DNA from: an uncultured Oscillospiraceae bacterium
Lineage (GTDB): Bacteria > Bacillota > Clostridia > Acetivibrionales > Acetivibrionaceae
DNA: 18,052 bases
NCBI GenBank assembly: GCA_964409165.1
Contig: CAYPCH010000079.1
Coordinates: forward strand, 1 to 18,052
Direction of reading: 5' to 3'
Both the position numbers and the translations under genes were made by a program. The notes under the pieces are model-generated. The model was given only the letters and a program-made list of their open reading frames with translations, searched no databases and was not told the origin of the DNA. Within the stretch, counting starts at the first letter, position 1. Each line of letters begins with the position of its first letter. This document shows, in pieces, positions 6,572 to 6,799 of this stretch.

Positions 6572-6646
6572 TTAAATTCCATAATAAAAGCAATCTCTAA
6601 GGATATCCCGTATTATATTGTAATGTTTTATAAAATCATTAAACAT
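6572..6646 (-). pseudogene. Truncated duplicate of the 5' end of the WYL regulator gene (24 codons, [24 protein letters not shown]-stop), with its promoter and RBS copy
   Basis: Nucleotide sequence 6587-6646 is near-identical (2 mismatches) to 14616-14675, which encodes the N-terminus of the 444-aa WYL protein. The reading frame ends after 24 codons. Confidence 0.6.
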
Positions 6647-6708
6647 GAAACTGCTCCTCACATAAATTCATGTCCTAATTCTATCACAAACAATTTGAAA
6701 TCAAAACA

Positions 6709-6738
6709 CAAACCCAGTAAAGTAATTTGCTGGGTTTG
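6709..6738. promoter_or_regulatory. Palindrome CAAACCCAG-N12-CTGGGTTTG (candidate operator) between the truncated WYL fragment and the divergent RlaP promoter; paralogous copy at 14739-14768
   Basis: Perfect 9-bp inverted repeat. The 14739-14768 copy reads CAAAACCAG-N12-CTGGTTTTG, i.e. the C-to-A change in one arm is matched by a G-to-T change in the other arm. Confidence 0.5.
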
Positions 6739-6799
6739 CACTTTAAATTCCTCTAATACACTTATGTAATGTAAAACCTTTATTAAACTCAATATAATA

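Follow-up and report, generated by a model that had tools for sequence, protein, structure and literature searches.

The window, by which we mean the whole stretch of 18,052 nucleotides analysed here, contains 17 large open reading frames, all of which were scanned against Pfam (Table 1). It includes an RNA-repair block. An operon on the minus strand, headed by the genes WYL444 and WCX391, runs through an LMWP-like gene, a Y-RNA-like region and an SPFH/Band-7 gene to RtcB, and from the other side two Pol-beta-type nucleotidyltransferase genes, RlaP1 and RlaP2, approach it on the plus strand, such that the 3' ends of RlaP2 and RtcB converge. Next to RlaP1 lie the genes for a response regulator (RR) and a histidine kinase (HK), and next to WYL444 lies a fragment of Tpt1, followed by Macro, JetD and JetC. 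One near-identical contig (L159) extends 10 kb further upstream, where it carries only JetA-D, Hsp33 and a CSD protein.

WYL444 matches the WCX domain with E=6.8e-14. Its WYL match (E=0.0015, 18.9 bits) falls under the cut-off of 21.8, and an HTH is absent from the Pfam output; many of its homologues have a precomputed PF13280 match and are named WYL or YafY by their sources. The region labelled 'orf86' has a match to YrlA that stays below threshold (E=5.8e-4, 33 bits versus a gathering score of 69), and it folds better than 200 of 200 shuffled sequences (z=-2.8). It is probably a Y-RNA-like element.

Table 1. Features of the window, in order of position
Feature	Position	Strand	Remarks
Beta-lactamase-fold protein	171-1880	+	Pfam
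Rhodanese	2213-3199	+	Pfam
Cthe_2159	3415-4353	-	Pfam
Histidine kinase (HK)	4473-5840	-	follows RR
OmpR-type response regulator (RR)	5837-6514	-	
Stub ORF (WYL', putative relic)	6572-6646	-	24 codons + stop; 23 shared codons, then Ile-stop
Breakpoint J3	6577/6578	.	WYL codon 23 joined to RR upstream region
Left repeat copy	6578-6750	-	hairpin, P_WYL-type promoter, 5' UTR, RBS, ATG, 23 codons of a putative former second WYL gene; alignment, colinear with the RlaP1<>WYL intergenic region, single-copy in L004 and L006
Extended -10 of left copy (putative)	6678-6688	-	TGTGATAGAAT; inferred from sequence
Left-copy hairpin	6709-6738	-	CAAACCCAG...CTGGGTTTG; terminator-like, one C.A mismatch
RlaP1-side intergenic region, unique part	6751-6812	+	degenerate 22-nt motif remnant AAAGGTTTTACATTACATAAGTG (minus strand); RlaP extended -10 TGGTATAAT (6800-6808)
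RlaP1, Pol-beta-type nucleotidyltransferase	6841-7614	+	PF10127, E=7.9e-90
RlaP2, Pol-beta-type nucleotidyltransferase	7653-8654	+	PF10127, E=1.8e-20
Breakpoint J2	8655-8860	.	convergent 3' ends of RlaP2 and RtcB
WYL-headed RNA-repair operon	8861-14675	-	WYL444, WCX391, LMWP-like, Y-RNA-like, SPFH, RtcB
RtcB	8861-10045	-	Pfam
SPFH/Band-7	10132-11331	-	Pfam
'orf86' / Y-RNA-like region	11603-11863	-	element about 11600-11800; sub-threshold YrlA match
LMWP-like	11877-12212	-	Pfam
WCX391	12209-13384	-	Pfam
WYL444	13341-14675	-	Pfam; 444-aa WYL/WCX gene
Right repeat copy	14607-14780	-	hairpin 14739-14768, extended -10 14708-14718, RBS 14683-14688, ATG 14673-14675, first 23 codons of intact WYL444
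Breakpoint J1	14780/14781	.	Tpt1 3' end joined to hairpin; Tpt1 homology to L009 ends exactly at 14780
Tpt1 C-terminal fragment	14795-15124	-	PF01885, profile positions 75-176 only
Macro	15507-16025	-	Pfam
JetD	16265-17476	-	Pfam
JetC	17473-18024	-	Pfam

The block is bracketed by two direct copies of a 173-nt segment in the same orientation, of which 143 positions are identical, with a single 1-nt indel. A repeat search divides them into two sub-blocks (6578-6659/14607-14688 with 89% identity, and 6660-6750/14690-14780 with 79%, offset by the indel), and pairwise alignment agrees. The blastn core (6588-6750 versus 14617-14780) is 87.3% identical over 165 alignment columns (E=1e-51), and the longest exact runs common to both copies measure 24, 19 and 14 nt. 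The repeat is far above chance expectation and its sequence is not of low complexity, so that the direct repeats which a sequence-only reading of this stretch had reported are real. That reading placed them almost correctly. Its overall placement stands, but its left bound (6572) coincides with the stop codon that ends the stub ORF, the homology beginning at 6578, and its right bound (14791) overshoots the end of the homology at 14780, which is 14 nt from the Tpt1 stop codon (14795-14797). Where it saw two differences in the first 60 coding nucleotides there are four (at nt 12, 37, 57 and 60), and seven over the 69 coding nucleotides that the copies share. An 11-nt match, GACCATCTCTC, is found near both inner breakpoints (6512-6522 and 14589-14599), and we treat it as chance because its distances from the two copies differ.

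Read along the minus strand, each copy consists of a hairpin, a spacer, an extended -10, a 5' UTR with the ribosome-binding site GAGGAG, an ATG and the 23 shared codons. A stretch of 13 nt at the extended -10, TTTGTGATAGAAT, is identical between the copies, and the element is kept as T(G/A)TG(A/G)TAGAAT 5' of the WYL gene in most of the closest related loci aligned; it would constitute the promoter element of this gene (P_WYL). As the sequence-only reading had it, the right copy heads the intact WYL gene, and the left one duplicates the WYL promoter and 5' end in truncated form and adjoins the divergent RlaP promoter. The stub departs from the family at codon 21, where it carries L21Y at a position that is invariant in the WYL family alignment.

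The hairpins of the two copies differ in detail. On the right, a 13-pair stem with a 4-nt loop and a T-rich tail is located 26 nt beyond the Tpt1 stop; a simple terminator scan flags it and leaves the left hairpin unflagged. Folding of 58-nt segments centred on the hairpins gave -21.3 kcal/mol for the left (6695-6752) and -15.7 kcal/mol for the right. Among the related loci, L153 carries another hairpin sequence in this place, immediately 5' of the conserved P_WYL, where it ends a co-directional gene of 200 amino acids situated between RlaP1 and WYL. In L006, a remnant of the start of that gene survives along with the hairpin found in the window; no hairpin is present in L019, L021, L060 and L061, whose canonical intergenic regions are short. 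We therefore read the hairpin as a putative intrinsic terminator of the gene that lies upstream of WYL in relatives. The right-hand one, with a G+C-containing stem and a T-run after a co-directional gene, now stands 3' of Tpt1 and would serve as its terminator. A palindromic operator is the less likely interpretation, given the other hairpin sequence at the same place in L153 and the four loci that have none.

What the repeated segment represents becomes apparent from comparison with related loci. An alignment of WYL444 homologues, used to scan genomes at one per species, yielded 64 loci, onto which the proteins of the window were mapped. Where RlaP genes accompany close relatives of the WYL gene, the canonical order is RlaP2<RlaP1<intergenic>WYL>WCX>(LMWP)>orf86>SPFH>RtcB. 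It is present in full in six loci (L004, L006, L008, L019, L021, L060) and up to the contig end in two more (L022, L061). In L153 and L157 the divergent order is the same, with RlaP1 and WYL separated by further genes. Alignment to L004 is particularly instructive. Its positions 7980-10059 correspond to window 8660-6588 (84.6% over 2104 nt), covering RlaP2, RlaP1, the intergenic region and the first 59 nt of WYL, and its positions 9921-12407 correspond to window 14753-12227. A single continuous stretch of L004 (7980-12407) hence covers both pieces of the window, and the overlap between them, 9921-10059, is the repeat. In relatives, the cluster has one copy of the repeated segment, which is its control region. 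Since the two L004-matching pieces overlap exactly on the repeat, the left copy is native beside RlaP1 and the right copy is native ahead of WYL.

The block between the repeats is thus the canonical cluster in circularly permuted form, with 173 nt of overlap, and not a cargo island, because the same segment occurs once between the RlaP pair and the WYL operon in relatives. On the minus strand, the window reads Tpt1 / hairpin-P_WYL-WYL...RtcB / RlaP2<RlaP1<-intergenic-hairpin-P_WYL-WYL' (23 codons) / RR-HK, with the slashes marking the breakpoints J1, J2 and J3. At J2, which falls within 8661-8861, the sequence from about 8722 to 8860 is without counterpart in the canonical loci, and no terminator was flagged there. 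Neither a permuted layout nor a WYL stub was found in the 64 genome loci or in the three nearest metagenomic relatives, and for this reason the history of the arrangement is not traceable step by step.

A 22-nt motif, TTACAGACAAAAAGTTTGCAAC, is almost invariant across related loci. One occurrence lies 5' of the RlaP1 promoter and stays with RlaP1 even when WYL is distant (L008, L014); two more, forming an inverted pair, immediately precede the promoter of the Y-RNA-like/SPFH/RtcB segment. The partners of the motif are RlaP1 and the Y-RNA-like/SPFH promoter; it does not accompany P_WYL. The RlaP1-side motif of the window lies just outside the repeat and is degenerate. A sigma-54 reading of the motif (TTGCA after GG) was discarded, because the GG varies (AGAC, GGAC, GAGAC) and the spacing deviates by one base.

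With respect to age, the two copies resemble each other no more than they resemble the single copy of another species. Over 173 nt, 143 positions are identical between left and right, 143 between left and L006, and 147 between right and L006, which argues for an old and not a recent duplication. The non-coding parts of the two copies agree at 83 of 105 positions. Over the 69 coding nucleotides, right and L006 agree at 68 and left and right at 62, and the 23 shared codons differ by five synonymous changes plus two non-synonymous nucleotides, both in the codon of L21Y. The differences being mostly synonymous, the stub evolved as coding sequence for most of the separation. Nei-Gojobori estimates give pS 0.44 and pN 0.035 (Fisher p=7e-4), but they are based on only seven substitutions, and four of the five synonymous ones are third-position transitions, which inflates the apparent constraint. 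This pattern suggests a second WYL gene that was functional and whose truncation came comparatively late.

Contigs that are 99.3-100% identical to the window are available from four sample sources. Those from SRR8925752 (L001, L071, L072) match the window, with intact RlaP genes. Those from SRR3166067 / PRJNA283612, an anaerobic digester (L067, L068, L069, L162), carry a 1712-bp deletion allele that recurs in JGI 3300038805 (L159), and those from SRR14585993 (L002, L070) cover the right copy only. The deletion allele (L067, L068, L069, L159) lacks window 6813-8524, with a 6-nt microhomology, ATTTAA, at the junction, and thereby loses RlaP1 and leaves only the last 130 nt of RlaP2. This is the sole polymorphism seen in the near-identical contigs (99.3-99.9%) from the three other sources, and both copies are kept wherever they are covered: L067, L068 and L159 carry both, and L069 the left one. 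Exact-protein look-ups with WYL, Macro, HK, RlaP2 and Tpt1 returned only nearly identical contigs, which confirms the layout and the deletion allele; with RlaP1, there was no record.

We are fairly confident that the left copy is what remains of a second WYL gene and its promoter, still attached to RlaP1 and RlaP2 after a rearrangement. It is homologous to the 5' region of an intact paralogue, ends at a sharp breakpoint (6577/6578) and runs into a premature stop; moreover, it has kept its ancestral neighbour and orientation, RlaP2<RlaP1<intergenic>WYL' being colinear with L004 and L006. Two diverged copies of the cluster would once have stood in tandem, as old paralogues or through acquisition of a second cluster from elsewhere. 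A deletion at J1 (14780/81) would have removed the RlaP pair of the first copy and fused Tpt1 to the hairpin of the first cluster, and a deletion at J3 (6577/78) would have taken everything past codon 23 of the second WYL gene and joined the remainder to the RR upstream region; we infer this order of events. What makes such a history plausible is that the locus has suffered other deletions, namely one inside Tpt1, the loss of the upstream 200-amino-acid gene together with part of the conserved motif, and that of the RlaP deletion allele. The tandem intermediate is hypothetical, as the intact second cluster that it postulates was not found in any genome. An intact donor, that is, a second WYL gene of this family, or another stub was likewise not found among the 64 genome loci or in L153, L155 and L157, and there is no other WYL N-terminal stub outside this lineage among 72 loci (L001-L072). 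The sequence-only reading had considered, among other possibilities, a cassette duplication that re-used the WYL regulatory region. This comes nearer the mark than its suggestion of insertion or excision, but the left copy sits in its ancestral RlaP context and is not a newly recruited promoter.

Such an origin is compatible with a second possibility, to which we assign a small but real chance, namely that the left copy has been retained by selection as a working control element, either as part of the divergent RlaP control region or as a promoter that puts RR and HK under the signal to which the RNA-repair operon responds, or both. The RR gene begins 63 nt downstream of J3, in the same direction as the stub promoter, and the terminator scan flagged nothing between stub and RR; if active, the stub promoter would read through the 24-codon stub into the RR and HK genes. 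Furthermore, the left copy has preserved an intact extended -10 block, GAGGAG and ATG, although its non-coding part has diverged by 21%, and it persists even in the allele without RlaP genes. However, the 63 nt retained 5' of RR hold a -10-like TAGAAT of their own, in a geometry similar to that of the RR promoter in L074 (whose RR is 65% identical), such that RR need not depend on the stub. It also speaks against a control element that the conserved RlaP1-associated motif is outside the repeat and degenerate here, and that 23 codons are without use in a promoter. The intact promoter, RBS and ATG fit a recent truncation and continued selection for promoter function equally well.

The sequence-only reading had suggested that the repeats mark the insertion or excision of an 8-kb island, i.e., that they are attL/attR-like scars of site-specific or homologous recombination. 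At first sight the locus invites this view, since two direct repeats bracket accessory RNA-repair genes in a defence-rich neighbourhood (Wadjet JetABCD, Macro, Tpt1), and cassettes headed by WYL and WCX are highly modular across genomes. We nevertheless regard it as very improbable. The copies are only 83% identical, with a longest exact run of 24 nt, and their mutual distance equals that to the single copy of another species, whereas attachment sites are short, near-identical direct repeats with an integrase or recombinase at one end. The Pfam scans of the 17 large open reading frames found no integrase, transposase or resolvase domain, in agreement with the earlier statement that no recombinase is visible in the window. 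The repeat consists of a promoter and a gene 5' end and is single-copy within the same cluster in relatives. Contigs from all four sample sources keep the copies that they cover, and recombination between the repeats was not seen on any near-identical contig. No empty site was found, either on these contigs or in a metagenome scan based on the kinase, whose only hits were this contig, relatives with 44% and 36% identity and numerous unrelated kinases at 24%. The flanking RR-HK pair has no close orthologue in the collections that were searched (best 44%), and L074 and L075 are without any RNA-repair genes. Finally, a scan of viral contigs with the WYL alignment gave no relatives. The repeats are most likely not the scars of a mobile island, but the relic of an ordinary rearrangement.

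It is equally hard to credit that a single capture event brought in everything between J1 and J3 as a piece, one unit plus 173 nt long, from a circular or tandem-array intermediate, its terminal redundancy now appearing as the repeats. In favour of this, the block corresponds exactly to the canonical cluster, circularly permuted and with 173 nt in overlap, and the upstream edge of hairpin and P_WYL is a recurrent junction to varied neighbours in many loci. But a concatemer from a single source would give identical ends, and the ends here are 17% diverged, with coding-type substitutions. There is also no replication or recombination gene with the cassette, and no other locus is permuted in this manner. 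A broader version, according to which WYL-WCX cassettes would move as circular or tandem intermediates that recombine in their own control region, with the block as a footprint of such a transfer and an 8-kb circle that might still pop out, strikes us as similarly far-fetched. That the arrangement is an assembly artefact, a chimeric contig fusing similar sequences, might be feared from its metagenomic origin and from the fact that Logan contigs do break at another repeat (a 42-nt tandem repeat at 13074), but this is refuted by independent contigs, because SRR8925752 Logan contigs reproduce both sides with 100% identity (L071 as window 7044-3142 with the left copy, L001 as 18052-13074 with the right copy), both copies occur on single contigs in L067, L068 and L159, independent assemblies cover each copy with both flanks, and an assembler would not confuse copies that are 83% identical.

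How does the locus compare with known systems? Burroughs and Aravind are said to have surveyed RNA-repair neighbourhoods by comparative genomics (Nucleic Acids Res, 2016), encompassing RtcB, RlaP, Band-7/SPFH, Ro/Y-RNA, Tpt1 and Macro. The block in the window resembles such neighbourhoods in having two RlaP genes, RtcB, SPFH and a Y-RNA-like element (with a weak match to YrlA), with Tpt1 and Macro adjoining. Bacterial Y RNAs have been described (PMC4201824), and RlaP enzymes extend the 3' ends of damaged RNAs by one or two nucleotides (PMC12776372). In enterobacteria, RtcB operons are under the control of RtcR, an example being the rsr-yrlBA-rtcBA operon of Salmonella (PMC7790460). The operon of the window differs from known RNA-repair neighbourhoods in that a WYL and WCX pair and not the sigma-54 activator RtcR stands at its head, and in that the cluster is circularly permuted and partly decayed. 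The content of cassettes headed by WYL and WCX varies; L155 has Ro60/TROVE with Hen1 and Pnkp, L157 has Band-7 with a T4-type Rnl1 and a kinase, and L153 has Ro60.

WYL regulators are known in pairs, as with PafB/PafC of mycobacteria, and singly, as with BrxR and CapW of defence islands. The situation in the window appears similar to these systems, as adjacent WYL/WCX-type genes would head a stress- or defence-type operon behind a conserved promoter of their own. Unlike this comparison set, the pair in the window has no sequence match to solved structures (as determined by a profile search with the WYL family), and the similarity of WYL444 to WCX391 is marginal.

The repeats themselves share with the attL/attR sites of islands and prophages that they are direct, in the same orientation and placed around about 8 kb of accessory genes. 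They are unlike such sites in being long, 17% diverged and composed of a promoter and a gene start and not of a tRNA or a gene 3' end, with no integrase nearby. The likeness to relics of duplication followed by deletion is closer, the left copy carrying the upstream region and 5' end of an intact gene, with a sharp break, an early stop and RlaP1 synteny, amid other deletions. It differs from these in that the stub is old relative to its partner (17% diverged) and yet has its promoter, RBS and start codon intact.

Long direct repeats around accessory genes are easily misread as the boundaries of a mobile element, and the present case corrects such a reading. As a by-product, the comparison defines a canonical layout of an RNA-repair cluster in Clostridia, in which the RlaP pair diverges from WYL-WCX-...-RtcB. 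As candidates for follow-up, the 22-nt motif and the Y-RNA-like element are better suited than the repeat. In this lineage the cluster is decaying, as seen in the RlaP deletion allele, the truncated Tpt1 and the WYL stub, and the stub, with its promoter, RBS and start codon preserved, may have a residual regulatory role.

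A 22-nt motif, TTACAGACAAAAAGTTTGCAAC, shows almost no variation among the related loci L003-L066, though the WYL proteins encoded there are only 44-80% identical, and the WYL and WCX regulators may use it as their operator. On the side of the nucleotidyltransferase gene RlaP1, a single motif precedes that gene's -10 element by about 35-40 nt. The motif recurs in the stretch that separates WCX/LMWP from the downstream RNA-repair genes, here as an inverted pair, AAAAAGTTTGCAAC-N7-10-GTTGCAAACTTTTTGTCTGT; a terminator-like hairpin could also arise at this internal site.

Positions of the features in the window
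Feature	Position	Strand	Remark
22-nt motif, degenerate copy	6751-6790
RlaP deletion	6813-8524		1712 bp
'orf86'	11603-11863	minus	within region 11600-11800
YrlA match	11640-11701
22-nt motif, inverted pair	11834-11870
WCX391	12209-13384	minus
42-nt unit, three copies	12974-13103	minus	inside WCX391
WYL444 and WCX391	12209-14675
Tpt1	14795-15507		truncated
Tpt1 alignment block	15194-15110		L009 1440-1524
Tpt1 alignment block	15120-14780		L009 1671-2011
Wadjet genes	16265-18024		also L159 2517-8860

The presumptive regulators are encoded by neighbouring, overlapping genes, WYL444 and WCX391, an arrangement that recalls the regulator pair PafB/PafC. The colinear similarity between the two proteins is marginal (E=0.016 in BLASTP) and confined to the WYL core and the WCX region, and the family profile of WYL444 found no sequence match in the PDB. 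WCX391, an otherwise A+T-rich gene, contains a G+C-rich 42-nt unit that is repeated in frame as three perfect copies, each encoding the same 14-residue stretch. The near-identical contig L068 has one unit fewer, L004, from another genome, has a single copy of 89% identity, and the Logan contigs L001 and L002 both end at this repeat.

Further downstream, 'orf86' is probably not protein-coding. The region yields a sub-threshold match to the Y-RNA-like Rfam family YrlA (E=5.8e-4; 33 bits, gathering score 69), has a fold z-score of -2.8, displays the tRNA-like T-arms GGTTCGATTCC and GGTTCAAATCC and is preceded by an extended -10, TGTATAAT. ARAGORN detected no tRNA in it, and the equivalent spot in L003 (12495-12562) barely meets the Rfam tRNA threshold. 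The window contains no Ro60 gene; in the metagenomic relatives L153 and L155, one occupies the corresponding place in the operon. An internal duplication is also present in L004 (12407-19200), where a piece comprising an LMWP fragment, the 22-nt motif and the Y-RNA-like start occurs before SPFH (15618-15920) and again after RtcB (18815-19192), and about 3 kb of additional sequence separates WCX from the first copy.

A deletion allele that lacks RlaP1 and most of RlaP2, with a 6-nt microhomology (ATTTAA) at its junction, was found in two further sample sources, SRR3166067 (assemblies L067, L068 and L069) and JGI 3300038805 (contig L159). In Tpt1, the RNA 2'-phosphotransferase gene, a 109-aa ORF covers only positions 75-176 of the 177 in the profile, and alignment to L009 shows that the window has a gap inside the gene, about 147 nt long; a remnant of the N-terminal part may survive as a 49-aa ORF upstream.

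Immediately upstream of Macro-Tpt1-WYL lie the genes of a complete Wadjet system (JetA, JetB, JetC and JetD), located in the window and in L159. The RNA-repair cluster therefore resides in a defence-type neighbourhood.
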